Below, piece after piece: positions 45,342 to 63,441 of a DNA stretch of 64,000 nucleotides. Under the pieces are notes generated by a model, which was not told the origin of the DNA, searched no databases, and worked only from the letters and a program-made list of their open reading frames with translations. Position numbers and translations under genes: made by a program. The number at the start of each line of letters is the position of its first letter. The first letter of the stretch is position 1. This DNA is from an uncultured Gammaproteobacteria bacterium (lineage in GTDB: Bacteria; Patescibacteriota; Microgenomatia; Woykebacterales; RBG-16-39-9b), in assembly GCA_964360785.1 (NCBI GenBank), contig CAYHXX010000001.1, forward strand, positions 260,187 to 324,186. The letters are read 5' to 3'.

Positions 45342-45356
45342 AAGTAGGACTTAAGT

Positions 45357-46298: not shown

Positions 46299-46309
46299 AT
46301 ATTAAGAAA

Positions 46310-47452
46310 TTACTTATTTTGTTCTAACACTTGATTGTAGACCCCAAGAGTCTCTTCAGCCATCTTTTTCCATGAGTATTTTCTGACCTGTTGATAGCCT
46401 AGTGCAACCATATTGTTTCTGATCTTTGGCTCTTTGGTTAAGGAATTAATCTTTCGAACTAGTTCTTTTGGATCCCTTGGGTCAAAATAGATAGCTGCAT
46501 CTGCGTATACCTCTGGTAAACTAGTTGCTTTTGCTGCGATAACCGGACACCCTACTCCCATTGCTTCTAGTCCCGGCAAACCAAACCCTTCTGAAAGAGA
46601 GGGGAAAACGAAACATAGGGCTTGGTTAAGAAGTACTTTCAACTCTTCATCTGGGACAAAACCGGGTGTGATAAGTCTACTGCGAACTCCCAGTTCTTCG
46701 GCTTCTCGAATTACCCGATCCAAAAAACTGTTACGTGGGGAAACGCAAACAAATTTCAGATCAGTGGGAATTTGCGCTAGAGATTCGAGTAACACTTTTA
46801 TATTTTTGTAAGGATAGGTGTTACCAACAAAAATTACATATGGACTTTTAACTGAGTATTTTCCAAAAACCTCTTTTATTTTTCCCTCACTTGGAGAGAG
46901 TTGTGGTTCATAAAACTCGTCGGCCCCTTCTGGAGTGACTGCAATTTTTTTGGAGTCAACTTTCATATTTGTTACCAACTGTGTCTTAACATATTGACTT
47001 GGTGTAAAAACAATCTTTGCCCTAGTAACCGCCTGTCTCAAAGTTAACTTGTAAATGTTTTGTTTTGTCAGATAAACTGGTGCAATTTTCGTTGAAGCTG
47101 CAGACGAACCAAAATTGCTTTTTGTCAGATCATGAATAGTGACAACAAATTTGCCTGGATAAAGAAGCGGCACGTTGAAATGGGGAAAATGTACTAAGTC
47201 AAGTTTCTCTTTTACTAGTATTGCCGGCATGATTACCTGTTCTTTAACACTGTACCAACGAGCATCCGCTTTTATCTTTGTGAAGTTAGGGTTTTTAGGA
47301 TTGTAGAGATGAAAATTTGAAGTTCGTAAGAAAACAAAATACTCATTCTTCTGATCAATTAGTTCCAGATTTTCAAGTAGCTTTTCAACATAACGTCCAA
47401 TACCAGTACCTTCTGGACCGTAAAAACGAGCATCTATACCAATTCTATCCAT
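46310..47452 (-). CDS. Glycosyltransferase family 4
   Basis: 380 aa GT-B protein. The C-terminal motif EGFGLPGLEAMGVGCPVIA is typical of GT4. Confidence 0.8.
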   Translation of the reverse strand: MDRIGIDARFYGPEGTGIGRYVEKLLENLELIDQKNEYFVFLRTSNFHLYNPKNPNFTKIKADARWYSVKEQVIMPAILVKEKLDLVHFPHFNVPLLYPGKFVVTIHDLTKSNFGSSAASTKIAPVYLTKQNIYKLTLRQAVTRAKIVFTPSQYVKTQLVTNMKVDSKKIAVTPEGADEFYEPQLSPSEGKIKEVFGKYSVKSPYVIFVGNTYPYKNIKVLLESLAQIPTDLKFVCVSPRNSFLDRVIREAEELGVRSRLITPGFVPDEELKVLLNQALCFVFPSLSEGFGLPGLEAMGVGCPVIAAKATSLPEVYADAAIYFDPRDPKELVRKINSLTKEPKIRNNMVALGYQQVRKYSWKKMAEETLGVYNQVLEQNK

Positions 47453-47454
47453 AG

Positions 47455-48282
47455 TTAATGCTTAGCTAACTTTGTAATAATAGCAGCTGGGTAACTCAAC
47501 AAAATGAATGGTAACAGAATCAAAACGTGCAACCAAGTTTTGTGTTTAGAAAAATAATAAATTAAGCTTTTGTTCCAAATAGTCTGCCTTTTCCAAAAAC
47601 TTAATTGTTTTGTACTCTGACCCACCAAATGTGTAACTGCCGCTTCTGGGTAATAAATAATTTTGTAACCTTTATCCTTTATCCTTTTCAACAAGTCTGT
47701 GTCCTCGAACCACAAAAAGAAATTTTCGTCAAAACCGCCTAGTTTAATTAACGTTTCTCTCCGAATCAGAATAGCCGCTCCCATTAAGTGATTGGCCTCT
47801 TGAGTTTTTGTATAATCAAATTTTTGGTAAACAAGTTTTTTAAAAAAAGGTACTCTGTGTAATTTCAAGCTGATAATAGACTGATTAAGTAGGTTGGGAA
47901 AGTCAGTCGCTTCATTTAAAACTTTTCCTGACTCATCAGTCAGTTTTGGCCCAATCACAAAAACTTCACGATTTCCTTCAAGAAATCCTAGCATAGTTTC
48001 TACTGAATCTTTTTTAACCTCTGTATCTGGATTAAGAAGTAAAATAAATTCCCCATTTGCTATTTTTATCCCTTGATTAGAGGCTTTACCGTATCCTCGA
48101 TTGTCAGAATTAACAATGGCTTTTACTTCCGGATGCTTTTTTAGTATTTGGAATGTTGAATCTGAAGAATTATTGTCAAGGGCAATCACTTCTTTATCCA
48201 TCTTAATGTTTTTGAGCGAGTCCAAACATTTCTGAATTGTATTGGCTGAATTCCAAGTAACAATGATGATTGAGAGTTTCAC
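47455..48282 (-). CDS. Glycosyltransferase family 2
   Basis: 275 aa beginning SIIIVTWNS with a DxD-type GT-A fold. Confidence 0.8.
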   Translation of the reverse strand: MKLSIIIVTWNSANTIQKCLDSLKNIKMDKEVIALDNNSSDSTFQILKKHPEVKAIVNSDNRGYGKASNQGIKIANGEFILLLNPDTEVKKDSVETMLGFLEGNREVFVIGPKLTDESGKVLNEATDFPNLLNQSIISLKLHRVPFFKKLVYQKFDYTKTQEANHLMGAAILIRRETLIKLGGFDENFFLWFEDTDLLKRIKDKGYKIIYYPEAAVTHLVGQSTKQLSFWKRQTIWNKSLIYYFSKHKTWLHVLILLPFILLSYPAAIITKLAKH

Positions 48283-48286
48283 GATT

Positions 48287-49915
48287 TTAAGATAAAAGGT
48301 TAATTGCTTGGTTGAAATAAGGATCTTCTTCTTTTAAGAGTTTCTGCCACTTTTCTCTACAAAACTCTCCTTCTTTTTTCAGTCGTTTTGCTTTTTCTGA
48401 TGTTGTATCTAAACCCCGAGTTAACGATTCGTAATGATAAAGCTCGGCATAAGGCGTCCAAACAACTCGGTAACCCATCTGGTAAATCTTTAAACAAAGG
48501 TCGATGTCGTTAAAAGCAATTGGTAAGTTTTCCTCAAAGCCCCCAACTTTTTCAAACAGTTCCTTTTTGAGTAAAAGACAAGCGCCAGTCACAGCTCGAT
48601 AATTTTGAGGTGTAATTAATCTGTAAAAATAACCTGGATCAGTTCTTGGTTTTTGGACAAACACATGGCCAGCGAAATCCCCTACTCCCAGTATAGCACC
48701 GGCGTGCTGAATCGTATTGTTTGGATAATAGAGTTTTGCACCAACAATTCCCACACCTTTTTTTTCTGCCACTGCTAGCATTTCTTCCAGCCAGTTTGGG
48801 GTAATAATCTCTGTATCATTATTTAAAAACAATAAATACTCGGCACTACTCTTTTTAGCAGCGAAATTATTTAAAGTAGAAAAGCTAAAAGGAAAGTTGT
48901 AGTCGACAATCTTTAGATTATCAAATTTTGAAATTTCTTCGAAATAGTCCAGAGTTCTTTTCTCTTCACTTTGATTATTAACCACACAGATTTCGTAATT
49001 ATGATAAGTAGTCTTCATCACGATTGAGTCTAGACATTTTTTCAACACTTCGACTTTATCTCTAGTCGGTATAATGACGGTTATTTTTGGATGAATCTTT
49101 AATTGGTAACTAATGTTAAAAACATTATTAAATTTTGTGCTTTCAACAGAAGCTAGAACTCCCGTTTTTTCTAAACTAGCTTTAATTAAATCTGGGTTAA
49201 TTGTGTAAACTGTCTTTCCCTTCTGATTATGGTAAAGAATTTTATTTACATGAGAAGCTTTATTTTCCAGAGCAATCTGGAATATAACCTCTCCGAAGTT
49301 ATTTGGTTTAATATCTTTGATTAGATTAAATCTCTCTTTAAACAACTTATTTTTTATTATTATTCCGTTTCCAAGATAGTTGAAACTTTCAAAATATTCT
49401 GGCGACCAATCAGGTTTTAGAGAAGGAGAAAAGCGATTATTCAAGCTTCCAATGTAAACATCCTCATCAGTATAAAAGAGATTGGATTCAGAATTAGTAT
49501 TGACAGCAAAAGCAACTTCATAGAGTGCTTCGGGAGAAAGCAGGTCTCCTGATTGTAAAAAAACTATGTAATCGCCCCAGTTTTCTTTTTCGTAAAGCTT
49601 TTCCAGGCCCTCTTTCAACGAGGTCAGGTTCCAGTTTAAATAAATTTGCTTTTCCAAGGACTTCAAGGATAGGTCTTCATCTAGCTTATTTTTTTCGTTT
49701 GAAAATATCAGTACTGTAAACTTTGGCCTTTTTAAAAAACCTTCGATATTCTTTTTCAGTTTAATAAGCTCACCTGAATTTGGTTCGTTAGCTTTAAGCC
49801 AAGATCGGTAGGGAAAATTTTTTGAAGGAATTAATTTACTAAGTATTTTAATAAAAAATACTCTAAGACCCTTGTTTTTTATTGTTGAAAGACTCTTCCT
49901 GATTAAATTGGCCAT
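48287..49915 (-). CDS. Tandem GT2 glycosyltransferase with a degenerate first domain and an intact second domain
   Basis: 542 aa. The C-terminal domain has ITVIIPTRDK...NDTE. The N-terminal half resembles the first GT2 domain of the 913-aa protein (YTDEDVY...KPDWSPEYF) but has lost the DxD-region consensus. Confidence 0.7.
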   Translation of the reverse strand: MANLIRKSLSTIKNKGLRVFFIKILSKLIPSKNFPYRSWLKANEPNSGELIKLKKNIEGFLKRPKFTVLIFSNEKNKLDEDLSLKSLEKQIYLNWNLTSLKEGLEKLYEKENWGDYIVFLQSGDLLSPEALYEVAFAVNTNSESNLFYTDEDVYIGSLNNRFSPSLKPDWSPEYFESFNYLGNGIIIKNKLFKERFNLIKDIKPNNFGEVIFQIALENKASHVNKILYHNQKGKTVYTINPDLIKASLEKTGVLASVESTKFNNVFNISYQLKIHPKITVIIPTRDKVEVLKKCLDSIVMKTTYHNYEICVVNNQSEEKRTLDYFEEISKFDNLKIVDYNFPFSFSTLNNFAAKKSSAEYLLFLNNDTEIITPNWLEEMLAVAEKKGVGIVGAKLYYPNNTIQHAGAILGVGDFAGHVFVQKPRTDPGYFYRLITPQNYRAVTGACLLLKKELFEKVGGFEENLPIAFNDIDLCLKIYQMGYRVVWTPYAELYHYESLTRGLDTTSEKAKRLKKEGEFCREKWQKLLKEEDPYFNQAINLLS

Positions 49916-50039: not shown

Positions 50040-51302
50040 ATGAAAAACATCTCTTCTGAAAAAGGTCCTGAGGTTTATGAGCTTATCAACTGCCGCACTT
50101 GTGGACAAAAAACTTTAAAGACTTTTCTTCATCTCGGTCCCATGCCAATTCCTAATGGATTTGTAAAGCCTGATCAACTTGTTGAAGGAGAGGCTTACTT
50201 CCCCCTTGATGTAGCTTTCTGTAAAAATTGTGGATTGATGACCTTGGCTCACGTTGTTCGGCCAGACATTATGTTCAGTAATTATGTTTATATCCCAGGT
50301 ACTTCAACAACTATGGTTGACCATTTTGGTGAAATGGCCAAAGAAATCACCAAGCGCTTTAATCTCAATAAAGACTCACTAGTTATCGATGTTGGCAGTA
50401 ACGACGGGACTTTATTAAAACAGTTCAAATCTCTTGGGGTGAAGGTTCTTGGAATTGATCCCGCTGAAAATATTGCTAAAGAAGCAACCACACAAGGTAT
50501 AGAAACATTGGCTGAATTCTTTGGTGAAGAAGTGGCCAAGGACGTTTCTAAGAAAATAGGCCTGGCCGATGTTATTACTGGAACCAATGTTATCGCTCAT
50601 ATTGACAACTTGGTTGATGTCATGAGAGGAGTCGATGCACTCTTGAAAGACGATGGCGTCTTTATCGGCGAGTTTCCATACTTGGTTGATCTAGTTGAGC
50701 ATGGCGAGTTTGATACTATTTATCACGAACACCTCTCCTATTTTAGTATCCGCTCACTGCTCGCTCTAGCCGAAAGAACAAATTTTGAAATTTTTGATGC
50801 GCAAAGAACAAATGTCCACGGTGGTTCAATTCAAGTCTTTTTCAGAAAAAAAGGCAGGAATAAAGAACCCTTTGTCAGTGAGTTAGTAATTCTTGAGAAA
50901 GCCAAGCGACTCGACACTATCGCTCCCTTCGAAGATTTTGCAAGACGGACTTATTTAAAATGCGAAGAACTTAACGAAATTCTGAAGCAATTGAAATCCC
51001 AAGGCAAAAGAATCGTTGGTTATGGCGCAGCCGCAAAAGGCAACGTGCTAACCAACTTTTTCAGAATTGGACCAGAACTGTTAGATTATATAGTAGACTC
51101 AATTCCTTATAAGCAGGGTCTCTACACTCCGGGGCTTCATATTCCAATCTACCCAGAAACTAAACTTCTGGAAGACATGCCAGATTATGCTTTGATTTTT
51201 GCTTGGAATTTTGCAGACGAGATTGTTAAGAAAAATAGTGAGTACCGTAAAAAAGGTGGAAAGTTCATTACTACCATACCAACAATAAAGATACTTTACT
51301 AG
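50040..51302 (+). CDS. NDP-hexose C-methyltransferase-like enzyme (Zn-ribbon, SAM methyltransferase and C-methyltransferase C-domain)
   Basis: 420 aa with an N-terminal CxxC...CxxC Zn-ribbon (CRTCGQ...CKNCG), a class I SAM motif (VIDVGSNDG) and a C-terminal domain like the TylC3/C-methyltransferase family. Confidence 0.65.
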   Translation: MKNISSEKGPEVYELINCRTCGQKTLKTFLHLGPMPIPNGFVKPDQLVEGEAYFPLDVAFCKNCGLMTLAHVVRPDIMFSNYVYIPGTSTTMVDHFGEMAKEITKRFNLNKDSLVIDVGSNDGTLLKQFKSLGVKVLGIDPAENIAKEATTQGIETLAEFFGEEVAKDVSKKIGLADVITGTNVIAHIDNLVDVMRGVDALLKDDGVFIGEFPYLVDLVEHGEFDTIYHEHLSYFSIRSLLALAERTNFEIFDAQRTNVHGGSIQVFFRKKGRNKEPFVSELVILEKAKRLDTIAPFEDFARRTYLKCEELNEILKQLKSQGKRIVGYGAAAKGNVLTNFFRIGPELLDYIVDSIPYKQGLYTPGLHIPIYPETKLLEDMPDYALIFAWNFADEIVKKNSEYRKKGGKFITTIPTIKILY

Positions 51303-51336: not shown

Positions 51337-51888
51337 TTAACCGGGCTTAACTTTCCAAAAATCTTCTCCGAAAACATCCCAAGGAAGTCGTCTTTCATCC
51401 GGGTTTTCAATATTGAATTGCTGATTCACGAAGTAAAAGACATACAAAGATTCCGGTCCTAAATTAGCATACCCATGAGCCACCCCAGAGGGAATAAGAA
51501 GCATATGTGATTTACCCCCACCTAAAATTAATTTCACCTTCACATTTTTTGTTGGAGATGATTCTCTGGTGTCAACTAGTCCAACCGTCAGAACTCCGTC
51601 AGGTGGAATATACCAAAGGTCTTGCTGTTTAAAATGTAGGTGCCAAGCTTTTATTGACCCTGGCATGACTTTACTGAGGTTAATTTGTCTTAGTTGAAAA
51701 TTTTCTAACCCTTCAAAGGAACCGGAATCAGAGAGACGTCCTACTTCGCAAAGAAAACCATCTTCGGCGGTAAAATTCTTCAGTTCCCAAACCTTTACCC
51801 CATCAATTTGTTGGCTCTTTGAATAATCCTGTACTTTAATTTTTTCACGAAAATCTTTTAAGATATCTTTTTTTGTTAGTTCTTCCAT
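51337..51888 (-). CDS. RmlC-like cupin (dTDP-4-dehydrorhamnose 3,5-epimerase family)
   Basis: 183 aa cupin. It has a WHLHF..Q core and AHGY, resembling the RmlC RGLHFQ...AHGF motifs. The exact specificity is uncertain. Confidence 0.55.
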   Translation of the reverse strand: MEELTKKDILKDFREKIKVQDYSKSQQIDGVKVWELKNFTAEDGFLCEVGRLSDSGSFEGLENFQLRQINLSKVMPGSIKAWHLHFKQQDLWYIPPDGVLTVGLVDTRESSPTKNVKVKLILGGGKSHMLLIPSGVAHGYANLGPESLYVFYFVNQQFNIENPDERRLPWDVFGEDFWKVKPG

Positions 51889-51913: not shown

Positions 51914-54655
51914 TTAAACTCTAATACTAAAATCTTCTTTATCCAGAGTTAAGTTGGGATTATAGAAAGGATCATTTTCAAGAAGTTTACCCCATTTTTT
52001 CTTCATATAGCTTACTTCAGAGGCATCAACACCTCTAGTTTCGATCTTTCCCAAAGATGTTGATTCATGATGAAAGAGGACTGCCTGAGGCACGTAGACC
52101 ATTTGAAAACCCTTTGCTCTTAGTTTTAGACAGTAATCAACATCATTAAAGAGTATTCTTAAATCCTCATCAAAACCACCGACCTCAAGATAGAGGTTTC
52201 TTTTGGTTAGAAAACAGGCTCCAGTGACAGCAGAATAATTTCTATTAACGTTAACTAAACCACCATAACCAATTTCGTCAGGATAACGGTAGTACGGGTG
52301 TCCAGCAATCCTGTCCGGTCCTAAACCCAGAATAACTCCGCAATGCTGAACTTTTTTATCTCCAAACAGTAGCTTGACCCCAACTCCACCAACATCTTTA
52401 CGCTGAATATGACCAACCATTATTGATAACCAATCCTTTTTAATCGGTTCAATATCGTTTCCCAAAAGAAGAATGTACTCACCTTTCGCCTCACTCACTG
52501 CGTAATTAAAAATTTTGGGTATATGAAATGGTCTGTCGTAATCCAGAATCCTAACTTTTGGGTTTATTTTTAACTTCTCAAAATACTCGTAGGTTTCTTT
52601 TTCTATACTTTGATTATTAATAATAATAATTTCAAAGTTTTGATATGTGTTTGATAAAACTCCATCAACACAGCGCCTTAAAAAATTTACTTTATCTTTA
52701 GTTGAAATAACTATGCTTACTAGTGGCTCTTCTTTAATTGAATAAATAATGTCATAAGATCCTAAAAAGGGTCCTGGTTTTATGATTCCTGGCGTACCCC
52801 TTCTTTGTAAAGCATCGTTAATAACATCTTTATGGACTTTGTAAGCGTATGTTTTACTTCTAGGATTACCTGCAGTTGATCCACTCCACATCCGAAAACT
52901 ATAGAGAATGTTAGGTATATGATAAACTTCCTTAGTTTGTTCAACAGTCCGAAGGATATAATCCCAATCTTGGGTACCCGGGTATTTTTCATTGAAGAGG
53001 CCAATCTTATCCGCCAAGGATTTTCTCAAAGCAAGAAAATGAGTCATATACATCATGCTCAGTAGTAAGTCTGGGGAGTAGTCTGGTTTAAAGAAAGGTC
53101 CTGAATGATTTTCGTTTTCGTCTATTTTATCTTCATCACTATAAATCAAATCCGCTTTCGGATGCTCGTTCAAGACTTTAACTGTTTCGAAAAGCGCATT
53201 TGGCCAATAAATGTCATCATGGTCAAGAACCCCAATGAATTCTCCTGTCACCATCTTCAAAGCAGTATTTGAAGCAACGGATATACCACCGTTTTTTTCC
53301 CGATAAATAACCTTTATTCTCTTATCTTTCTTCTTATACTCTTCGAGAATTAACTTTATATTTTCGTCATTGGAAGCATCATCAGCAATACAAAGTTCCC
53401 AATTTTTGTAGATTTGATTTATCACAGAATCGATTGCTCTTCTTAAAAATTTTTCAGGTGTGTTATAAACTGGCAACAAGATACTTATTTTTGGCTTACT
53501 TGTAAATTTTTCTTCCTGATCCTTCATTTCTTCAATCTTTTGGGTAGTCAAAGCGTTTTTCATTAACCAATCATTATACTGAACATCCATAACTTGCGAA
53601 TAACGAAACTTGTTATAAATAGCTCTTGGACCGTACTTAAAGAGAATTTTAAAGCCTTTTTTAATTTTATCTTGATTTAAGACCACTTTTACAATTTTCT
53701 TAAATAAAGTAAAACCTTGACCGAGTTTGTAAATTCTTGTTTTTTTATACGAGTCAATCAAGATCTGAATTTCTTTAACCTCACTATTTAGTCTTTCATT
53801 TTGTTTCTGAAGTTGAGTGAAATCAAATTCTTTCTGATGAATTCTTTCTGACAGTAAACTCAATGAATCGTAAACAAATTTTTCGTAAAGATTTTCATCT
53901 TTCTTGGATTTTAAATCGTCAATGTTTAACCTATCTACCAAATTCTTGTCTTTGGTAAGAAAGTAAATCTTTCGATAAGAAGGGTCAAAACTATCCCCTA
54001 GTTTCATAAAGTTTTTATTGTAATTTTCATAATAAGCCAACGTATCTTTATCGGTTGTTTCATACACTTCCTCTAAAAAGTTAATACCCATGAACAAAAT
54101 CCAGTTATTAAGATTGTTTTGCCCTATCTTTTTGAAATAAACCCCGTTCTCCTTACAAAATTTTTCAAGCTCGGTTTCCTTTGGCAAAGTACTTTCTAAG
54201 TGTTCTTTTAACCAAGGATGCATTCTACCTAAGTTCTCATAGTAAAGATCATTCAGATAACCCTCAGCTTGTTTAACGTGGGGTGAGTAAAACGGTGCAG
54301 TTAGAATTACCCCGTATTTTGAAACTCTTAGGAGCTCTTGGATAAACTTATATTTACTCTTTTTTGGAATATGCTCCAGTGTTTCTAAAGAAGTCACAAA
54401 ATCAAAAGCCTTATCATTAAAACCGATATTTAGCGCGTCACCTTGAATATAATTTGGTTCATTGTAATCGTTTGGAAGGGTATCAAAGATTTGAATATTG
54501 TAGTTTTTTGGTAAGAACTCGTAAAGTTTGCCCCCTCTACCGCCAACATCAATTATTTTAATATCTTTATTCTCACCAGCAATTTTTTGTAATATTTTGG
54601 AGACAAAAAAATTTCGGCTATAGAGATCCGGTTGTAGTTTGATTAAATCTTTCAT
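51914..54655 (-). CDS. Multidomain glycan polymerase/terminator: class I SAM methyltransferase, coiled coil, then two GT2 domains
   Basis: 913 aa. The N-terminus has a SAM fold (IIDVGGRGG...LETLEHIP). A coiled coil spans roughly residues 230-330. GT2 domain 1 has ISILLPVYNT...DDASND...DHDD and GT2 domain 2 has VSIVISTKDK...NND. Confidence 0.75.
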   Translation of the reverse strand: MKDLIKLQPDLYSRNFFVSKILQKIAGENKDIKIIDVGGRGGKLYEFLPKNYNIQIFDTLPNDYNEPNYIQGDALNIGFNDKAFDFVTSLETLEHIPKKSKYKFIQELLRVSKYGVILTAPFYSPHVKQAEGYLNDLYYENLGRMHPWLKEHLESTLPKETELEKFCKENGVYFKKIGQNNLNNWILFMGINFLEEVYETTDKDTLAYYENYNKNFMKLGDSFDPSYRKIYFLTKDKNLVDRLNIDDLKSKKDENLYEKFVYDSLSLLSERIHQKEFDFTQLQKQNERLNSEVKEIQILIDSYKKTRIYKLGQGFTLFKKIVKVVLNQDKIKKGFKILFKYGPRAIYNKFRYSQVMDVQYNDWLMKNALTTQKIEEMKDQEEKFTSKPKISILLPVYNTPEKFLRRAIDSVINQIYKNWELCIADDASNDENIKLILEEYKKKDKRIKVIYREKNGGISVASNTALKMVTGEFIGVLDHDDIYWPNALFETVKVLNEHPKADLIYSDEDKIDENENHSGPFFKPDYSPDLLLSMMYMTHFLALRKSLADKIGLFNEKYPGTQDWDYILRTVEQTKEVYHIPNILYSFRMWSGSTAGNPRSKTYAYKVHKDVINDALQRRGTPGIIKPGPFLGSYDIIYSIKEEPLVSIVISTKDKVNFLRRCVDGVLSNTYQNFEIIIINNQSIEKETYEYFEKLKINPKVRILDYDRPFHIPKIFNYAVSEAKGEYILLLGNDIEPIKKDWLSIMVGHIQRKDVGGVGVKLLFGDKKVQHCGVILGLGPDRIAGHPYYRYPDEIGYGGLVNVNRNYSAVTGACFLTKRNLYLEVGGFDEDLRILFNDVDYCLKLRAKGFQMVYVPQAVLFHHESTSLGKIETRGVDASEVSYMKKKWGKLLENDPFYNPNLTLDKEDFSIRV

Positions 54656-55864
54656 TTATTTACCTAAACTCCATTCGGCATCAAGTTTAATAATTCCCGA
54701 TTGGTTAACTTCAGTTGAAGCCACTTTGAAACTGGGGCCCTTGTCAATAAAATCATACGCAAAAGAAACATTATAGTCGAACAGACCAACTGTGAGAAGG
54801 TAGGTTCCAGATAGCATAGGAATTTTTCTAATTTTGTAATCAACAAAACCATCTCCATTTAACTTTTTAATGGGGAAACCCGAATCCTTGGTGTTAGGTC
54901 CAGTTATATGAACACCATCTTCTTTCCTGTGAAAAGCAATACCGATAACCGGATTAACAATTTCTTTATTAGTCTGATAATAAATTCTGACGGTGAGAGA
55001 AGTTCCAGTTTCAAAAAATTCTCTTTTCTTAAAACTTACGTCGAGAAACTCCACTTTTTTAATCTTAAACTCCTTTGCTTTTGTTTTGTAATCAAACTTA
55101 CTTTCACTTTTCTTCTTTTCATGTTCTTCCATATTTAACCGCAAATACTCTAAGACTGCTTTTTGAGGAGATCCTTCAAAATAAACCTGCCCTTTATTCA
55201 TTACAATTACCCGATCACAAAATTCCTGAATTCTGCCTAAATCGTGAGAGATGAAAACAATGGTCGCTCCTATCTTCTTAAATTCCTGAAATTTTGTAAA
55301 ACTCTTTTCCTGAAAGGAAGCGTCACCAACCGATAAAACTTCATCAACCAGAAGAACCTCTGGAGCAACATTAACGGCCACTGAAAACGCAAGACGGACT
55401 TGCATTCCTGCTGAATAGAATTTTAGCTGAGTATCAATAAATTTTTCCATTTCAGAAAAAGAAATAATGTCATCAAGTTTCTTATCAATTTCCTTTTTTG
55501 TTAAACCTAAAATTGACCCGTTTAGATAGATATTTTCTATTCCAGTCAGTTCAGGATGAAAACCAGTTCCCAATTCAAATAATGTCGAGACCTTACCAAT
55601 AACCTTAATCGTCCCGCTATCAGGGTTAATTATTCTTGCTAGTACTCTAAGCAAAGTGGTTTTACCCGACCCGTTACTACCGATAATTCCCAGCGATTCA
55701 CCTTTTTTTACGTTAAAGGAAACATTTTTTAATGCCCAGAACTGCTCTACGTAAGACTTCTTTTCTTTAAAAGCCTTTGTAACCAAACCTTTTAAGGTTT
55801 CCTCTTTACCGTGAGTAATCTTAAAAATCTTACTTATATTTTTAACTTCAATTGTATTTGCCAT
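54656..55864 (-). CDS. wzt: ABC transporter ATP-binding protein Wzt with C-terminal carbohydrate-binding extension
   Basis: 402 aa with Walker A GSNGSGKTTLL, the signature LSAGMQVRL and Walker B LLVDE. A roughly 150-aa beta-rich extension follows. Confidence 0.85.
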   Translation of the reverse strand: MANTIEVKNISKIFKITHGKEETLKGLVTKAFKEKKSYVEQFWALKNVSFNVKKGESLGIIGSNGSGKTTLLRVLARIINPDSGTIKVIGKVSTLFELGTGFHPELTGIENIYLNGSILGLTKKEIDKKLDDIISFSEMEKFIDTQLKFYSAGMQVRLAFSVAVNVAPEVLLVDEVLSVGDASFQEKSFTKFQEFKKIGATIVFISHDLGRIQEFCDRVIVMNKGQVYFEGSPQKAVLEYLRLNMEEHEKKKSESKFDYKTKAKEFKIKKVEFLDVSFKKREFFETGTSLTVRIYYQTNKEIVNPVIGIAFHRKEDGVHITGPNTKDSGFPIKKLNGDGFVDYKIRKIPMLSGTYLLTVGLFDYNVSFAYDFIDKGPSFKVASTEVNQSGIIKLDAEWSLGK

Positions 55865-56638
55865 TTAAATTTCTTCTGCAAATTTTCCCTCTAATTTTCC
55901 GAACAAATAAAAACCAATTAATAAGGAGCCAAAAGTCGAAACCAGGATAACAAGCATAATTTCTTTACCCGGAAAAACATTGTCAAGAACAATATTTCTG
56001 TAAGCAGTAAGAAAAGAGGCCATTGGGTTAAGGAGATAAAATCCTGCATACTTCTCAGGAATTAGAGAGATTGGATAAAAGATTGGGCTGGCAAAATACC
56101 ACACTGGCAATGAACTCTCAACCAAAATAGGAACATCTCGAAAGAAAACGCTTAGTGCTGCTAGCATCAAAGCTATTCCAAGAACAAACAACACTTGTAA
56201 AATTAACAAAATCGGAAAGAATAGCCAAAGCAAATTCGGTAATATTTGGAAAAAAAGTAACAGAATTATTAACACAACAAGCGAAAAGATCAGTTGTATT
56301 AAGTTTCCAATTACAATTGAAATGGGGAAGATTTCCCGAGCCAGATAAATTTTCTTTATTAGACCTCCATTATCAATAATAGATCTGGAAGATTGTATTA
56401 ACGAAGAAGCGAGAAACTGCCACGCTAGTATTCCAATTAGTAAGAAGATAGGAAAGTTTTTTACACCAGCTCTGATAACGAAAGAGAAAACGATAGCCAA
56501 AACAACCAAGTTCAGCAGGGGATTAAGAAAAGACCAAATAAATCCTAAAGCAGAACCCTTATAGCGAGTTTTTAAATCTCTGGCAACAAAATTTCGTACT
56601 ACGTCACGATAGCTGTAAATTTCCTTTAATTTTTTCAT
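55865..56638 (-). CDS. wzm: ABC-2 type polysaccharide exporter permease Wzm
   Basis: 257 aa with 6 TM helices. It is translationally abutted to wzt. Confidence 0.8.
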   Translation of the reverse strand: MKKLKEIYSYRDVVRNFVARDLKTRYKGSALGFIWSFLNPLLNLVVLAIVFSFVIRAGVKNFPIFLLIGILAWQFLASSLIQSSRSIIDNGGLIKKIYLAREIFPISIVIGNLIQLIFSLVVLIILLLFFQILPNLLWLFFPILLILQVLFVLGIALMLAALSVFFRDVPILVESSLPVWYFASPIFYPISLIPEKYAGFYLLNPMASFLTAYRNIVLDNVFPGKEIMLVILVSTFGSLLIGFYLFGKLEGKFAEEI

Positions 56639-56744: not shown

Positions 56745-57626
56745 TCACGGGTGATTATAGTTTATTAATCCTGATGTTTCAATATAATCTGCACAAGCAC
56801 TTTTCCAATCTCTTAAAACCACCCCAAGTTTCGCTGATCTTTCATTTTTTAAAACTGTATAGTTTGGTGGTTTCGAATCTCTTTCGAAATCTTGCAGTTT
56901 AATTGGTTTTATTTTTACATTAGTCATTTTCGTTAATTCAAGAATAAGTTCTGCCCATTCAAACCTTGAGGCAAATCCCCCATTGACCAAATGAAAAATC
57001 CCACTTGGACTCTTGCGAATTAATTTCTCAAGCGCTTCTGCTAAATCGGGGGTATAAGTTGGAGTGGAAATTTCATCCTCTACTACTTTCAAGAAACCCT
57101 GCTCTCTCGCTCTGTTAACTATCTTATGCGGAAAATTTGTTGTTGAGGCAGGTCCATAAAGCCAAGCAACCCGGACAATAGAACAATCTGGACCCAAGAC
57201 CGTTTCTGCATAAGTCTCTCCCAGCCTTTTCGACTTTCCATAAGGGGTTATTGGATTGGGATAATCCATTTCTAAATACGGGCTTTTTTTCTGACCATCG
57301 AAAACCTCATTTGTACTAATATAGATTAATTTAGCATTAATATTCTTCACTGCTTCGGCAACGTTTCTCGTCCCCTCACCATTAATAACCATTGCTTTTT
57401 TAGGTTCTTTTGCACAACCATCAACATCCGTCCAAGCTCCAGCATGAATAACAAAGTCAGGTCTCTCGAGCACAGTCACCTCGACCGTTTGTTTTTTGTT
57501 TGTAAAATCCAAACTATTTTTATCGGTAGCTATTACTTGAAATTTTTTCTTAAAAACGCGGACTAATTCCTTCCCGAGTTGACCACCTGCTCCCGTAATT
57601 AGGATTTTCATTTTTGTCTTCAACAA
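56745..57626 (-). CDS. rmlD: dTDP-4-dehydrorhamnose reductase
   Basis: 293 aa with the Rossmann motif ILITGAGGQLG and RmlD substrate-binding-domain similarity. Confidence 0.8.
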   Translation of the reverse strand: MLKTKMKILITGAGGQLGKELVRVFKKKFQVIATDKNSLDFTNKKQTVEVTVLERPDFVIHAGAWTDVDGCAKEPKKAMVINGEGTRNVAEAVKNINAKLIYISTNEVFDGQKKSPYLEMDYPNPITPYGKSKRLGETYAETVLGPDCSIVRVAWLYGPASTTNFPHKIVNRAREQGFLKVVEDEISTPTYTPDLAEALEKLIRKSPSGIFHLVNGGFASRFEWAELILELTKMTNVKIKPIKLQDFERDSKPPNYTVLKNERSAKLGVVLRDWKSACADYIETSGLINYNHP

Positions 57627-57690: not shown

Positions 57691-58692
57691 TTACCTTTCT
57701 TGGTATTGTTTTTTGTAATATTCTTCGTACGCACCACTTTTAAGCGGCTTCCACCACCATTCATTTTCCTGATACCACTTGATTGTCATTTTAATACCTT
57801 CTTCAAACGTTATTTTTGGTTCCCAAGAAAGTTCTTTTCTTAACTTAGTACTATCAATACTATAGCGACGATCGTGTCCAGGTCGGTCCTTAACCGGCTC
57901 AATGTAAGATTTATCTTTCCCAAAATTACTTACTAGTAGCTCGGCAATTTCTTTATTTGCTATTTTTTCTCCAGTACCAATGTTATAAACCTGTCCAACC
58001 TTACCTTCGTGCAAGATTGTATCGATTGCTTCGCAATGATCACTCGTGAAAATCCACTCGCGCACATTTAAACCATCGCCGTAAAGCGGGACTTTTTTAT
58101 TTTCAACCAAGTTAGTAATAAAAAGAGAGATTAATTTTTCTGGGTATTGGTTTGGTCCATAGAAATTACAGCTGTGAGTAACTACTACTGGAACCTTGTG
58201 GGTCTCAAAATAAGCCCGGCACAGCAAGTCTCCTCCGGCTTTTGACGCTGCATAGGGGCTATTTGGCTGGAAAGAGCTACTTTCAGTAAAACTCCCCTCT
58301 TCTATCGAACCAAAGACCTCATCCGTAGAGATCTGTACCATCTTTTTTACTTGGTTTTCTTTGACTGCATCGAGTAAACTCAGAGTTCCAATCACATCGG
58401 TTTTAGCAAAGTCATAAGCGTTAAGAATTGAACGATCGACATGAGTCTCAGCTGCGTAGTTGATAACTGTATCAACTCCTTTGGTAACTTCTTTAACTTT
58501 CTTGGTATCAGTAATGTCACCTTTAATAAATTGGTAATTGGAGTTATTTTCAACTTCTCTAAGATTACTTGGGTTACCAGCGTAAGTTAATTTGTCGTAA
58601 TTAATTATTTTGTAATCTGGATATTTTTTGAGAACGTGTTTAATAAAATGGGACCCCATAAATCCCGCCCCTCCTGTTATCAAGATCTTCAT
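57691..58692 (-). CDS. rmlB: dTDP-glucose 4,6-dehydratase
   Basis: 333 aa beginning MKILITGGAGFMGSHF with the extended SDR YxxxK motif (YAASKAG). Confidence 0.9.
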   Translation of the reverse strand: MKILITGGAGFMGSHFIKHVLKKYPDYKIINYDKLTYAGNPSNLREVENNSNYQFIKGDITDTKKVKEVTKGVDTVINYAAETHVDRSILNAYDFAKTDVIGTLSLLDAVKENQVKKMVQISTDEVFGSIEEGSFTESSSFQPNSPYAASKAGGDLLCRAYFETHKVPVVVTHSCNFYGPNQYPEKLISLFITNLVENKKVPLYGDGLNVREWIFTSDHCEAIDTILHEGKVGQVYNIGTGEKIANKEIAELLVSNFGKDKSYIEPVKDRPGHDRRYSIDSTKLRKELSWEPKITFEEGIKMTIKWYQENEWWWKPLKSGAYEEYYKKQYQER

Positions 58693-59459
58693 CTTTCCTT
58701 TCCCTGATTAAAATTGGTAAGTCCTTTTTCTGTTTCCTTACCTAAACGCTTTCTTGTCCAAAAGACGTTTGTTCTGTACAAACTTTCGAAAGTACCGGCA
58801 TCAGACCAAAAACCATCGAGCTCTGCCCAGCGCATTTTTCCAGAATCAATGTAACGATTATTAACGTCTGTAATTTCCATTTCGCCTCGATCAGAAGGTT
58901 TATTCATCCGGATGTAATCAAAAACCTTGTTATCATATACGTAAAGCCCAGTCACGGCTAGATTGTTTGCCGGCTTAGCTGGCTTCTCCTCAATTTGAAT
59001 TATTTTACTGTTGTCAGATTTATCAAAAACTGGAACCCCAAACCTTTGAGGGTCGGTAACTTCTTTAAGAAAAACTAAAGACCCTTCATCAAACTCTTTC
59101 ACCTCTTTTTTAATATCAGCGTCAGTACAGTTGTCTCCCAGAATAACAGCAACAGAGTCTTTACCAACGAAGTCCTCACAAAGTTTTAGTGCCTCAGCAA
59201 TACCACCTTCTCCTTCTTGATAGGCATACTCTAAATGGTCAACTCCAAAATCCTCACCATTTTTTAGCACGTGTAGGAAATCTCCGGCGTGTGGCCCACC
59301 CGTCACAATAATAATTTCTTTAATACCGGCATTAACCAATGTTTGAATTGGGTAGTAAACCATCGGTTTATCAAAAACCGGAAGTAAGTGTTTGTTTGTT
59401 GCGTGGGTTAGTGGGTAAAGTCGAGTCCCTTTACCACCAGCCAGTATGGCACCCTTCAT
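58689..59459 (-). CDS. rmlA: Glucose-1-phosphate thymidylyltransferase
   Basis: 256 aa beginning MKGAILAGGKGTRLYPLT...KHLLPVFDKPMVYYP, nearly colinear with RmlA though slightly short at the C-terminus. Confidence 0.85.
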   Translation of the reverse strand: MKGAILAGGKGTRLYPLTHATNKHLLPVFDKPMVYYPIQTLVNAGIKEIIIVTGGPHAGDFLHVLKNGEDFGVDHLEYAYQEGEGGIAEALKLCEDFVGKDSVAVILGDNCTDADIKKEVKEFDEGSLVFLKEVTDPQRFGVPVFDKSDNSKIIQIEEKPAKPANNLAVTGLYVYDNKVFDYIRMNKPSDRGEMEITDVNNRYIDSGKMRWAELDGFWSDAGTFESLYRTNVFWTRKRLGKETEKGLTNFNQGKER

Positions 59460-59533: not shown

Positions 59534-60526
59534 TTAGTGGAAAAAGCTCTCTAATGAATTCTTGAAATTCTTTAAAGCTTTTGCCAGCTTCCAAGTACGA
59601 GAAATTTTAATTGAGTTTAATTCACTTTGAGCCAAACTAAGTTTGTTAACAACAGCTGTTTGTTCTTTAAGCTTTTGCCTAATTTCCTCGATTTCTCTTA
59701 CTTGACTTCTAAGACCGTCAATCTCATTGAAGACTGAAAAATGAGGATAGGAGGAAAGTACTTTAGGTTTATCTAAATCTTTAAATCTTTTTTTTGTTTG
59801 CCCACTAATTTCTGTTTGGAACTTCTCTTCAAACCTAAAGTAACTCCTAAGATCCTTTAATTTCGGAAAATAATTATCGTAAATTTTCTTTGGAACAAGC
59901 ATTTCGGGAATTATTTCAACTACTGGGTAATTCGTAGAAGTTTTAAATGCCACCACAGCTCCTACGTTCATAAAACTATAAAAGAGAGACCTAAAAAAAA
60001 TAAATTCCAAAGGGATAGGGTCCTTAGTTACCCATTCATAGTCAAAAAGATAAATCTCCTTATCCTTCCTACTTAGATTGTCCATGTTAAAATCTAGACA
60101 TGTGGTACTTAAGCATCTTACCTTTTCTTCTGGAAATTTACCGAAATTCTTAACCAGCCTTTCATCAGTGTTGCTTACCAATTGTGTTGGTAGCTTGTCC
60201 AACAAGGCTTTAAAGTCTTCAATTATCCTCTGTACCTCTTTTTCACCTTTGTCAATATACGCCTCATTAAATTCGTCTAAAAAAGTCCTACCTCTAATAA
60301 AATCAAAGACTAAACTCCCATCTTGAAACTTTGGTTCAACCAAACGGATCACACCTAACTTACCTTGCAAACTTTTGTAATTGGTTTCTAAGTTACGCAG
60401 GTGTCTTTTTGCGAGTGGGTTTTCAGCTCGCTTTCTAACAAAGGTTCTATCTTCACTAGTTTCTATAGTTGTTATTATTCGAAATCGTTCAGCTCGATTT
60501 GAATTTAGTTTTGCGTATTTAATCAT
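59534..60526 (-). CDS. Kinase-like protein with C-terminal coiled coil; candidate WbdD-like chain terminator or ruler subunit
   Basis: 330 aa containing LDFNMDN (DxxxxN) and LFDYEW, which resemble the Brenner and ID(W/Y)E motifs of APH/choline-kinase folds. The C-terminal 60 aa are heptad-rich. It overlaps the upstream methyltransferase gene by 8 nt. Confidence 0.4.
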   Translation of the reverse strand: MIKYAKLNSNRAERFRIITTIETSEDRTFVRKRAENPLAKRHLRNLETNYKSLQGKLGVIRLVEPKFQDGSLVFDFIRGRTFLDEFNEAYIDKGEKEVQRIIEDFKALLDKLPTQLVSNTDERLVKNFGKFPEEKVRCLSTTCLDFNMDNLSRKDKEIYLFDYEWVTKDPIPLEFIFFRSLFYSFMNVGAVVAFKTSTNYPVVEIIPEMLVPKKIYDNYFPKLKDLRSYFRFEEKFQTEISGQTKKRFKDLDKPKVLSSYPHFSVFNEIDGLRSQVREIEEIRQKLKEQTAVVNKLSLAQSELNSIKISRTWKLAKALKNFKNSLESFFH

Positions 60527-61433
60527 CGGTGTCCTTCTGGGCGAAGACTAGAAATGAGTTTGCAAAATCTCCAAATAACCCATTCTTAGCCAGACTCCCA
60601 CCAACTACATCTTCTGGGAAGAAGTACTCCCTAGACATGGAAAGATCCTTCGTTGGGAAAACCCCACTTGAAAAAGCTTTGTCCCTAACTGGTAGGAAGT
60701 GGTCGGAAAAAATTTCGATTGGTAATTTATAGTCTGGTAAAGGATAGTACCAGTCGAGTACTTTGTACTTTGCTTGTTTAAGTAAATTATTTAATTCCAA
60801 TTTACCATATGTTTTGATTTTCGAGTCCCCTAAATAGCCTGTTATTGAGTCGAATCCTACTCCTGTGTGATCCTCACGACATCCGGACCAATACTTCAAC
60901 CCTAATCTATTCTCGATCGCTAAGATTAGTTTGCCTGTCGGTCTTAAATAATTACCTAGATTTTTCAGAAATTTAAGTTGTGGTGCTTCTCCAGAAATAT
61001 ATACTCCAGCATATTCCAAAACGCCAACGCAAACAACATAATCAAATTTTTTTCTCACAGATAGATTTTCTATATTCCCTGATAAAACTGTCAAGTTCTC
61101 TTTGTGAACAAATCTTTGTTTGATAACTTTTGATCTTTTTTCTGTAAGTTCCAGAGCTGTTACAGATTTAAGCCTCTCACAAAATAAACCAGTTAAAGCC
61201 CCGCACCCTGCCCCAACTTCCAGTAATGATGATTCTTTGGGAAAAGGATACCAGTTCAAAAGATTCTGCCGTTGTGGGGATAAGTGATACCTCAATGGCC
61301 AGCTTAAATCAGTCTGTAGTAAACTGTTGATCTTTTCATCCGTTCCGGGACTGGAAAAAAGTTCCAAAAGCTCTTCTTCGGAAGAGTCCTGATAGTCTTT
61401 TTGCCTATCTGCTTTTTCATTTACCTTGTTCAT
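60519..61433 (-). CDS. Class I SAM-dependent methyltransferase
   Basis: 304 aa with motif I LEVGAGCGALTG and an acidic loop ALELTE. It is co-transcribed with the kinase-like gene. Confidence 0.65.
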   Translation of the reverse strand: MNKVNEKADRQKDYQDSSEEELLELFSSPGTDEKINSLLQTDLSWPLRYHLSPQRQNLLNWYPFPKESSLLEVGAGCGALTGLFCERLKSVTALELTEKRSKVIKQRFVHKENLTVLSGNIENLSVRKKFDYVVCVGVLEYAGVYISGEAPQLKFLKNLGNYLRPTGKLILAIENRLGLKYWSGCREDHTGVGFDSITGYLGDSKIKTYGKLELNNLLKQAKYKVLDWYYPLPDYKLPIEIFSDHFLPVRDKAFSSGVFPTKDLSMSREYFFPEDVVGGSLAKNGLFGDFANSFLVFAQKDTDD

Positions 61434-61462: not shown

Positions 61463-62704
61463 TTACAGCTCAGACCAAGTATGTGATAAAATCGAAACAC
61501 CTCTTTGAGAGGTCTTGCTGTCAACGACAAATTTCCCAACTTTTCCGATTAAATCATATGGTTGGGTTTCAACTAAACCAAAAATAACAACATTATAGTA
61601 GTACTCACCCCTATTTAAGGGCAATTTATTAACCCTCAAAATTATCTTATTTTGAGCAACAACGTCAAATTTGTCCATTTTAGTATTTACCCCAAAACAA
61701 TACTCGTCTTTTTCTGAGTAAACCCCAATACCTATATTTATCGGACGTACTGACTTTTTTACCTTAAAATTGAAAACAAAGTTATAATCTTTACCTGACT
61801 CAAGTAGATTTACTTCTTTACCCTTTGAATCAAGTATCTGCAAGGAGTTAAATATTATTTCGCCACTACCCCAACGATTACCTTGCCCCCTACCTTTCAG
61901 ATACTCACCTCTGTTATCCATAGTATCTCTTTGGTACATATTCATAACTTTTCCTGTTTCTCCCACACCTATTACTCTCCCATTAGAAAGGTAAGCCACC
62001 CTGTCACTAAATTCTTCAATTGAACCAAGGTTATGGCTAACAAAAACAACCGTCTTTCCTTTAGCTTTAAATTCTTTGAACTTATCAAAACATTTTCTTT
62101 GAAAAAGAACATCTCCTACTGCTAAAACTTCGTCAACCAAAAGTATTTCTGGATCATTCTGAATAGCAATCGAGAAAGCTAACCTAACCTGCATTCCTGA
62201 GGAGAAATTCTTTAGTTTTTGGTCGAGAAAATTCTCAAGCTCAGAAAACTTTACAATTTCATCAAATTTACTGTCAGTCTGCTTTCGCGACATTCCCAAA
62301 ATAGCCGCATTCAGATAAATATTTTCCCGAGCCGTAAGCTCTGGATTAAACCCAACCCCAAGTTCGATAAATGGCGACAAAGATCCGTTAATCGTTACTT
62401 TTCCTGAAGTCGGCTGATATATACCTGCTAAAATTTTTAGCAACGTGGATTTCCCTGAACCATTGGCACCAATGAGACCAAAAAACTCACCTTTTTTTAT
62501 TTCGAATGAAACATCGTCAAGGGCTCTGAATTTTTCGTAACTCTTTGGATTGAAAATATTCACGAAATGCTGCTTTACTGTCGAAAGTTTTTCATGAGGC
62601 AACTTAAAAACTTTTGACACATTTTCAACCTTAATTATTGCTTTAGTTTCTTTTTCCACTAGATCTCCTCCGCAAAGTTCTTTGAAGAACTGTTGAATAA
62701 CCAA
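61463..62704 (-). CDS. wzt: Second ABC transporter ATP-binding protein Wzt, with C-terminal carbohydrate-binding extension
   Basis: 413 aa with Walker A GANGSGKSTLL, the signature SSGMQVRL and Walker B LLVDE. A roughly 160-aa C-terminal beta-rich domain is present. Confidence 0.85.
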   Translation of the reverse strand: MVIQQFFKELCGGDLVEKETKAIIKVENVSKVFKLPHEKLSTVKQHFVNIFNPKSYEKFRALDDVSFEIKKGEFFGLIGANGSGKSTLLKILAGIYQPTSGKVTINGSLSPFIELGVGFNPELTARENIYLNAAILGMSRKQTDSKFDEIVKFSELENFLDQKLKNFSSGMQVRLAFSIAIQNDPEILLVDEVLAVGDVLFQRKCFDKFKEFKAKGKTVVFVSHNLGSIEEFSDRVAYLSNGRVIGVGETGKVMNMYQRDTMDNRGEYLKGRGQGNRWGSGEIIFNSLQILDSKGKEVNLLESGKDYNFVFNFKVKKSVRPINIGIGVYSEKDEYCFGVNTKMDKFDVVAQNKIILRVNKLPLNRGEYYYNVVIFGLVETQPYDLIGKVGKFVVDSKTSQRGVSILSHTWSEL

Positions 62705-63441
62705 ATACCGAAAATGAAAACACTAGCTACGATTACTAAACTAACAAATGCCAATGGTAAACCCATCGCACTCCAGGTAGTTGTAAAATCCCTTGAGATT
62801 AGAACCCATCGAGCATCTTGAATTATTTGAGTCACTGGATTTAACATCACCAACCACTTAAGAGAGTCTGGGATAAAGGCCACGGGATAAATGATCGGAA
62901 CTGCATAAAACCCAACCTGCAGGACAACTTCCCAAATATGAGAGAAATCGCGAAACTTTGTGTAAAATGTCGAAAGAATTAGACTTAAACCAATAATAAA
63001 GATAATTAACTCAATTATTAAAGGAATTAGTAATAAAGCATGGAAATCTGGAATAATCCTTGAAAAGATTAAGAAGACAAAAATAATAATTAAGTTAAGT
63101 ATAAAAGTTAAAACCGAGGTAATAACAGCTGAAAGAACAATTACGAGTTTTGGAAAGTTAACTTTCCGGAGCAGTTCTCCTCTACCAACTATAGAATGCA
63201 TCCCACCCATAGTCGCCTCAGCAAAAAACGACCAAAACATGATACCTACCAATAGATACACTGGGTAATTAGCAATCCCCTTACCTAGGTTGAAGAAATA
63301 GGTGAAAACAACGTAAAGCACCCCAAAAAAAAGTAACGGCTTCACCAAGGACCAAATGTAACCTAAAATTGATCCTGAATATTTAAGTTTAAAATCAGTT
63401 AGGGCGAGTTGGAGTGTGAGATTAATGTAATTTTTCTTCAT
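62659..63441 (-). CDS. wzm: Second ABC-2 type exporter permease Wzm
   Basis: 260 aa, six TM helices. It overlaps the wzt start. Confidence 0.8.
   Translation of the reverse strand: MKKNYINLTLQLALTDFKLKYSGSILGYIWSLVKPLLFFGVLYVVFTYFFNLGKGIANYPVYLLVGIMFWSFFAEATMGGMHSIVGRGELLRKVNFPKLVIVLSAVITSVLTFILNLIIIFVFLIFSRIIPDFHALLLIPLIIELIIFIIGLSLILSTFYTKFRDFSHIWEVVLQVGFYAVPIIYPVAFIPDSLKWLVMLNPVTQIIQDARWVLISRDFTTTWSAMGLPLAFVSLVIVASVFIFGIWLFNSSSKNFAEEI

Follow-up and report, generated by a model that had tools for sequence, protein, structure and literature searches.

Do two overlapping genes in a metagenomic polysaccharide locus encode a chain terminator in two pieces and, if so, to which of the known terminators are they related? 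The genes lie in a 64,000-nucleotide stretch of contig CAYHXX010000001.1 (positions 260,187 to 324,186; this whole stretch is referred to below as the window). The first, open reading frame 1 (ORF1), specifies a methyltransferase dependent on S-adenosylmethionine (SAM) and the second, ORF2, a kinase-like protein ending in a coiled coil; the initial annotation had read the pair as a split form of WbdD, the terminator of Escherichia coli O9a, and had regarded the split as distinctive. We find that the split is genuine, that by profile comparison the closest known relative is the ORF6 terminator of Klebsiella pneumoniae O7 (KpO7 ORF6) and not WbdD, and that separate genes appear to be the majority state of the sub-family to which ORF2 belongs. 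It is likely, as judged from sequence comparison and a structural model, that ORF1 and ORF2 together make up a two-subunit chain terminator acting on a surface glycan that depends on an ATP-binding cassette (ABC) transporter and probably contains rhamnose. The mechanistic class is known, while the split arrangement and the ORF2 kinase sub-family are new relative to the literature searched, in which neither is described; the orthologues listed in the O7 study are all fused (PMC11231755).

Results

The N-terminus of KpO7 ORF6 combines a methyltransferase with an 'unannotated' domain of 223 residues, and the two jointly place methyl-phosphate on O3 of the terminal rhamnose, giving Rha-3-O-P-OMe in vitro; the D441A mutant is inactive, with phosphorylation abolished, and the kinase is described by its authors as different from that of WbdD in sequence and structure (PMC11231755, J Biol Chem 2024). 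ORF1 shows the Rossmann-like fold and E/DxGxGxG SAM loop of a class I SAM-dependent methyltransferase and matches the Pfam families Methyltransf_11/12/25 (E 2.5e-10 to 1.2e-8). The residues of its SAM loop are invariant in 44 homologues and the loop glycines correspond to G91/G93 of KpO7 ORF6, both of which were mutated in the O7 study (PMC11231755). A profile of the ORF1 family recognizes KpO7 ORF6 with 204.8 bits (E 7.5e-65) over residues 24-312, that is, over the whole methyltransferase including its C-terminal extension, and the signatures YSDGD, LE(V/I)GAGCGA(L/I)T, IGVLEYA, AIEN.(F/L)GLKY, EDH, P.PDYKLP and ANSFL are common to both. By these measures ORF1 and the methyltransferase domain of KpO7 ORF6 are members of one family, and ORF1 is predicted to be a phosphate O-methyltransferase. 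Searched against the PDB the same profile returned generic methyltransferases, with WbdD not among the best 60 matches.

When ORF2 and 61 relatives were compared with Pfam and NCBIfam no kinase family was found, only coiled-coil noise and faint matches to DUF4135 and ABC1, and a single-sequence phmmer search of the PDB gave nothing beyond a marginal match to the MNK1 N-lobe (E 0.013). An AlphaFold2 (AF2) model built on the 61-relative alignment (predicted local distance difference test score, pLDDT, 94.9; predicted template modeling score, pTM, 0.82) has three parts, a bilobal domain (residues 1-245), a 45-residue helix (263-307) and a second helix (310-329). All of the matches listed in a Foldseek comparison of this model with known structures are protein-kinase-like, the top 26 at E ≤ 1e-3, and the best is the aminoglycoside phosphotransferase (APH) APH(3')-Ia (E 2.3e-4); the nearest neighbors are APH, macrolide phosphotransferase, AmiN and choline/ethanolamine kinases, at sequence identities of 5-16%. 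The alignment of relatives shows R11, T19, K32, D145, N150, D162, E164, W165 and R179 to be invariant, so that the defining elements of the APH/choline-kinase fold are present in ORF2: two lobes, a lysine on strand β3, predicted to contact an ATP phosphate, the catalytic Asp-x4-Asn and a second metal-binding Asp. The model and alignment together indicate a kinase fold with an intact catalytic set. Like APH(3')-Ia (4EJ7), AmiN (6SUM) and LicA (4R77), ORF2 is bilobal with an Asp-x4-Asn loop and a second metal-binding Asp, but it lacks the histidine of their HxD motif (C-L-D instead), matches neither the Pfam APH nor the Choline_kinase family, and differs from these enzymes in its coiled-coil tail and obligate methyltransferase partner.

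The kinase of KpO7 ORF6, for which AmiN and APH are likewise the closest solved folds (PMC11231755), is homologous to ORF2, if remotely, by profile-profile comparison. The KpO7 sequence that we used covers residues 1-444 only and was rebuilt from a supplementary alignment figure by optical character recognition and is noisy, and KpO7 ORF6 itself is not among the matches listed in our database search. The ORF2-family profile aligns with one built from 40 O7-type proteins with an hhalign probability of 98.2% (E 5.4e-14, 210 columns), placing D145/N150/D162/E164/W165/R179 of ORF2 on D446/N451/D464/E466/W467/R481 of the O7-type protein P0272. Because D446, in 'FIDALPHN', is the Asp of KpO7 'FIDAVPQN', D441, it follows that D145 of ORF2 falls on the catalytic D441. 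D162-Y-E164-W165 of ORF2 matches, with equal spacing, the invariant D464-K-E466-W467 of the O7-type alignment, and the motif geometry as a whole is common to the two: D-x4-N, 11-12 residues, D-x-E-W, and an Arg 17 residues past the Asp of the latter motif. The motifs themselves differ, DLNLDN and IDYEW in the ORF2 group versus FIDAxPxN and IDKEW in the O7 type, and the invariant lysine of ORF2 is on strand β3 whereas that of the O7 type is on β2 ('CKET', K344 of P0272), with no conserved β3 lysine there; the ATP-binding lysine may have been relocated between the two. ORF2 is thus best described, on the strength of these alignments, as belonging to a sister sub-family of the O7 kinase rather than as its orthologue.

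In both proteins a coiled coil follows the kinase, and both are encoded in loci for a rhamnose glycan, a probable one in the case of ORF2, with Wzm and a Wzt bearing a carbohydrate-binding module (CBM). The architectures differ in that KpO7 ORF6 is one polypeptide, with an Ig-like CBM between kinase and coiled coil, where the ORF2 model has only a three-residue strand (255-257), with glycosyltransferase (GT) modules, which ORF1 and ORF2 lack, and with a coiled coil much longer than that of ORF2. The hosts differ as well, an enterobacterium in the case of KpO7 and a likely member of the candidate phyla radiation (CPR)/Patescibacteria for the pair in the window, whose activity is predicted.

In order to place ORF2 in a wider context 1.84 billion representatives were scanned exhaustively with HMMER. 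There are 1,475 cluster representatives that match at E ≤ 1e-3 (324 at E ≤ 1e-10), and because of these ORF2 can be taken as a real gene and not a chance ORF; a word-indexed homology search had found only ORF2 itself. The closest relatives of both proteins are in Candidatus Woykebacteria and other CPR bacteria. Among the best 149 representatives 129 are stand-alone, 7 carry extra sequence C-terminal to the kinase (P0162 and P0230 have the layout kinase-coiled coil-GT2-GT2) and 11 are methyltransferase-kinase fusions. The methyltransferase of the fusions is of the ORF1 family, and the break between the genes in the window falls exactly in their ~7-residue linker. We further surveyed 19 loci from species-representative genomes of Woykebacteria, Saccharibacteria, Howlettbacteria, Omnitrophota, Lachnospiraceae and other Clostridia, Spirochaetes and Epsilonproteobacteria; they were retrieved with one narrow pattern from a 10-sequence alignment and so under-sample the family. 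An ORF1-family methyltransferase is either fused to the kinase or encoded by the gene immediately upstream in every case (22/22, counting three further loci). Most of the loci have Wzm and an ATPase of the Wzt type no more than 6 kb away, and the two genes are split in 14 of the 19 and fused in 5. The overlap of ORF1 and ORF2, the fusions and the invariable pairing argue that the two proteins are one functional unit. With the split the prevailing arrangement in this sub-family, it would not be an oddity of the source genome. At locus L004 (ERZ25039483 contig_17737, 3727..8032) the genes for the methyltransferase-kinase fusion, for Wzt and for Wzm are each fragmented (494+133 aa, 192+141 aa and 112 aa); either the assembly is error-prone or the locus is decaying.

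The junction itself also shows that the split is genuine. The two genes overlap by 8 nt and, since the ORF2 start is located within the ORF1 stop region, translational coupling is suggested. An AAGGA that resembles a Shine-Dalgarno sequence precedes the ORF2 ATG by 5 nt, and the N-terminus of the protein, 'MIKYAK', resembles the 'MIIYAK' or 'MIIYSK' with which stand-alone homologues begin. No long homopolymer is found in the sequence at the junction, and all 1,900 nt of the region, junction included, are identical in three separately assembled replicates. The contigs that match the window derive from metagenomes of 0.1-µm-filtered Hainich groundwater; the GC content is 39.5%.

Beyond the kinase domain the tail of ORF2 consists of a helix of ~45 aa (~6-7 nm if fully coiled) in which, in the best heptad register, 8/13 a/d positions are hydrophobic. 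The ORF2-family profile matches, over this tail, only coiled-coil proteins of the GCN4 type in the PDB. The heptads, the single helix and these matches make 'heptad-rich' a fair label, and the pattern is compatible with a modest coiled coil, some 5-6 heptads long; if it functions as a ruler, its shortness would imply short chains. It is followed by a motif that in the family reads S/(R,K)/x/(W,Y)/(K,R)/(L,I) (S309-L314 of ORF2, 59585..59602) and by a last helix with a net charge of +4 and a hydrophobic moment of 0.38-0.48, moderately amphipathic. By analogy with the C-terminus of WbdD (PMC11231755, PMC3482155) this helix is predicted to dock at the membrane or polymerase. The same kind of motif ('TRIYKL') occurs after the coiled coil of an otherwise unrelated 913-aa methyltransferase-coiled coil-GT2-GT2 protein in the window, and in the kinase-coiled coil-GT fusions (P0162, L007) it is at the junction to the glycosyltransferase modules, so that S-(R/K)-x-(W/Y)-(K/R)-(L/I) may be a shared element for docking at the membrane or polymerase.

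The coordinates of these features and of the neighboring genes are listed in Table 1. The two overlapping genes, their sizes and strand, the DxxxxN and DYEW motifs, the kinase fold of the second protein, its heptad-rich end and the flanking genes (a CBM-bearing Wzt upstream, rmlA/B/D downstream) had all been described correctly in the initial annotation, as had the functional pairing of methyltransferase and kinase, which the single-chain methyltransferase-kinase-coiled coil relatives bear out; its concern that the overlap might be a sequencing frameshift is allayed by the three identical assemblies, and its other refuting outcome, a second protein with no match to a kinase fold, is contradicted by the Foldseek comparison.

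Table 1. Positions in the window of ORF1, ORF2, their sequence elements and neighboring genes.
Feature	Position	Strand	Description and basis
Wzm-A	62659..63441	(-)	ABC-2 permease; Pfam ABC2_membrane E 5.8e-14
Wzt-A	61463..62659	(-)	ABC ATPase with C-terminal Wzt_C carbohydrate-binding module; ABC_tran E 1.5e-25, Wzt_C E 1.3e-19; 398-aa gene call
ORF1	60519..61433	(-)	304-aa class I SAM methyltransferase
SAM-binding loop of ORF1	61200..61220	(-)	E72-V-G74-A-G76-C-G78; read from sequence
Shine-Dalgarno-like AAGGA	60532..60536		5 nt before ORF2 ATG
ORF1/ORF2 overlap	60519..60526	(-)	8 nt, ATGATTAA; ORF2 start inside ORF1 stop region
ORF2	59534..60526	(-)	330-aa kinase and coiled-coil protein; no Pfam or NCBIfam family
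Kinase domain of ORF2	59792..60526	(-)	residues 1-245; APH/choline-kinase-like protein-kinase fold
Invariant lysine K32	60431..60433	(-)	strand β3 (residues 27-34 in model); alignment of 61 relatives, AF2 model
Catalytic loop	60077..60094	(-)	D145-F-N-M-D-N150 (DxxxxN); D145, N150 invariant in 61 relatives
Metal-binding 'DFG-equivalent' motif	60032..60043	(-)	D162-Y-E164-W165; invariant in 61 relatives
Long helix, putative short coiled-coil 'ruler'	59606..59740	(-)	residues 263-307; AF2 secondary structure, heptad register, profile matches
Post-coiled-coil motif and cationic amphipathic helix	59540..59602	(-)	S309-R-T-W-K-L314 and C-terminal helix 310-329; conservation, charge
rmlA	58689..59459	(-)	dTDP-L-rhamnose synthesis; ORF and Pfam
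rmlB	57691..58692	(-)	dTDP-L-rhamnose synthesis; ORF and Pfam
rmlD	56745..57626	(-)	dTDP-L-rhamnose synthesis; ORF and Pfam
Wzm-B	55865..56638	(-)	second system of operon (51914..56638)
Wzt-B	54656..55864	(-)	with CBM; second system of operon
913-aa protein	51914..54655	(-)	methyltransferase (other family), coiled coil, two GT2 modules; second system of operon

The pair is embedded in a polysaccharide locus, its flanking genes all on the same strand, with Wzm-A and Wzt-A directly upstream of ORF1 and rmlA, rmlB and rmlD directly downstream of ORF2. Wzt-A appears in the ORF list in a longer form (61463..62704, TTG start, 413 aa, overlapping wzm by 46 nt), while the gene calls of the matching contigs start at 62659. 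The operon continues with a second system that includes the 913-aa protein, likely a rhamnan polymerase, to which neither the ORF1- nor the ORF2-family profile gave a match; in its GT2 part it shows homology to the glycosyltransferase portion of the kinase-coiled coil-GT fusions. A single operon thus holds two complete Wzm/Wzt pairs, with a Wzt_C module on both Wzt proteins, and two candidate terminators, the ORF1/ORF2 pair and the N-terminal methyltransferase of the 913-aa protein, an arrangement suggestive of two glycans, or two populations of glycan, that carry different caps. When compared with the CBMs from five related loci with a methyltransferase-kinase (L012, L008, L006/L009, L018), the Wzt-A CBM outscores the one on Wzt-B; this modestly higher similarity and its adjacency make Wzt-A the likely reader of the cap that ORF1 and ORF2 would add.

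Farther along, the 913-aa gene has as neighbors a gene for an NDP-hexose C-methyltransferase (50040..51302, (+); Methyltransf_13/14 domains, E 5.8e-54) and one for an RmlC-like epimerase (51337..51888, (-)), a hint that the glycan contains a deoxy-sugar that is C-methylated or unusual in some other way. The region 41339..49915 (-) encodes two GT2 and two GT4 enzymes, a polysaccharide deacetylase, a metallophosphoesterase, ManC and the initiating transferase of the Bac_transf family at 41339, to which the locus extends; just beyond it is a 637-aa DUF4012 protein (39426..41339).

Discussion

In the scheme that we favor ORF2 would be an ATP-dependent sugar kinase that oligomerizes through its short coiled coil and is positioned at the membrane or polymerase by the cationic amphipathic helix at its C-terminus. 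It would phosphorylate the non-reducing terminal sugar of a growing lipid-linked chain, and ORF1, translationally coupled to ORF2 and probably bound to it, would methylate that phosphate using SAM. The resulting methyl-phosphate cap would stop elongation and would at the same time be the ligand of the Wzt-A CBM, licensing export by Wzm-A/Wzt-A. Both the rml genes next to the pair and its homology to the O7 system point to rhamnose as the likely acceptor. The surroundings of the pair are those of a terminator, with a coiled coil past the kinase, relatives of the form kinase-coiled coil-GT2-GT2, a Wzt_C module and rmlABD next door. This kinase-coiled coil-GT2-GT2 layout is found in relatives P0162, L007, L008, L020 and L021, and the 913-aa neighbor is methyltransferase-coiled coil-GT2-GT2; in this they resemble the single-polypeptide terminator-ruler-polymerases, K. 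pneumoniae O12 WbbB and full-length KpO7 ORF6. The kinase-ruler protein of the window is separate from any glycosyltransferase.

A number of observations weigh against this scheme. The kinase match to the O7 type is remote, the noisy KpO7 fragment on its own scoring 0.5 bits against the ORF2 profile so that a profile-profile comparison was needed; the invariant lysine is on different strands in the two sub-families; the ORF2 model is without the Ig-like module; and the heptad pattern is modest. The preference for Wzt-A over Wzt-B derives from adjacency and modest score differences, the target of ORF1 could be a hydroxyl instead of a phosphate, and the operon encodes a second transporter together with a polymerase to which a methyltransferase and a coiled coil already belong. 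Because of this second system the glycan, polymerase and transporter served by ORF1 and ORF2 are candidates only.

Four other explanations can be considered. That ORF1 and ORF2 are a single gene broken by a frameshift in sequencing or assembly, or a recent pseudogene, might be entertained given that fused homologues occur and that the two frames are one nucleotide apart at the junction. However, the boundary carries the Shine-Dalgarno-like element and the stand-alone-type N-terminus noted above and has no long homopolymer, and most relatives are encoded separately (129/149 of the best representatives are stand-alone, and 14/19 species-level loci are split with gene order unchanged); we reject an artefact on the basis of the three assemblies that agree over the whole 1,900 nt, and consider any version of this explanation to have almost no chance of being correct. 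Very improbable, too, is that the pair is a true WbdD orthologue (E. coli O9a/K. pneumoniae O3 family; PDB 4AZS family) divided into two genes. The order of methyltransferase, kinase, coiled coil and membrane-proximal C-terminus is the same, the product and logic that we propose, methyl-phosphate cap and ruler with a Wzt-CBM checkpoint, are those of WbdD, the Wzt-CBM context is shared, and both systems draw on the broad class I methyltransferase and protein-kinase-like superfamilies. Beyond this superfamily level no specific similarity of ORF1 or ORF2 to the WbdD domains was detected, and the ORF2-family profile failed to find WbdD in the PDB at E ≤ 10; by profile comparison KpO7 ORF6 is the closer relative. 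The WbdD kinase is most similar to eukaryotic kinases of the Src type, and WbdD is a single 708-aa polypeptide that forms a trimer, with coiled coils predicted in 460-708 (PMC3482155), as opposed to two polypeptides here and, in place of a long trimeric coiled coil and a C-terminal region that binds the membrane and WbdA, one helix of 45 residues and an amphipathic helix of 20.

The structural neighbors of ORF2, all of them enzymes of the APH, macrolide phosphotransferase, AmiN and choline/ethanolamine kinase types, might be taken to mean that it acts on a small molecule, in aminoglycoside or macrolide resistance or as a LicA-like choline kinase, and is next to ORF1 by coincidence. We give this very little credence in view of the low identities, the lack of a match to the corresponding Pfam families, the methyltransferase partner at all 22 loci, the fusions of relatives to methyltransferase and to glycosyltransferases, the coiled-coil tail and the fact that the loci are polysaccharide loci; an antibiotic or choline kinase was rejected from genomic context. 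The remaining explanation, which we judge unlikely, is that the pair modifies a glycan without terminating it, adding an internal or side-chain phosphate or O-methyl group, or that the kinase alone forms a (cyclic-)phosphate cap while ORF1 methylates a hydroxyl. A cap consisting of phosphate only does exist, in the form of 2,3-cyclophospho-rhamnose on the S-layer glycan of Clostridioides difficile (PMC6254364), the polymerase of the operon already has a methyltransferase and coiled coil of its own, and the chemistry of ORF1 and ORF2 is a prediction. Against it, ORF1 carries the signature of the O7 phosphate methyltransferase (AIEN.GLKY, EDH, P.PDYKLP, ANSFL; 205 bits), the kinase is always accompanied by a coiled coil and in fusions is N-terminal to the polymerase GT modules, as in a terminator, and the presence of a CBM on Wzt implies that a terminal epitope is recognized (PMC11231755).

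If ORF1 and ORF2 do form a chain terminator, a testable function, that of a sugar kinase in chain termination, becomes available for a widespread protein family that is blank in current domain libraries, and the terminator/ruler/CBM-checkpoint model, which has come so far largely from Gram-negative O antigens, would reach ultra-small groundwater CPR bacteria and gut Clostridia. The methyltransferase and kinase of a methyl-phosphate terminator could then be delivered as separate subunits, and the split pair would be a simpler system in which to dissect the ruler and the coupling of the two steps. An easy mis-annotation is corrected as well, ORF1 and ORF2 not being WbdD homologues, and the split, thought to be distinctive, turns out to be the usual arrangement of its sub-family.

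A broader and more speculative picture, which we offer tentatively and do not expect to hold in full, would make ORF2 the first recognized member of a large family, so far un-annotated, of kinases that stand alone and terminate glycans (~1,500 cluster representatives, no Pfam/NCBIfam model). Together with a dedicated methyltransferase these would constitute the prevalent checkpoint on chain length and export wherever glycans depend on an ABC transporter in CPR/Patescibacteria, Clostridia/Lachnospiraceae and further lineages outside the Proteobacteria. In the window the kinase-ruler would dock, through its own coiled coil and the shared post-coiled-coil motif, on the coiled coil of the methyltransferase-coiled coil-GT2-GT2 polymerase. 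One polymerase could then supply two glycan populations with different caps, and for each population there would be a separate Wzt CBM to read it.

Finally, kinases of the ORF2 type are common in glycan loci of Clostridia/Lachnospiraceae (L013, L016, L019, L020, L022-L027). The S-layer glycan of C. difficile SLCT-11 ends in 2,3-cyclophospho-rhamnose and the text that describes it names no kinase (PMC6254364); given how common the ORF2-type enzymes are in such loci, a related kinase might make this cap.

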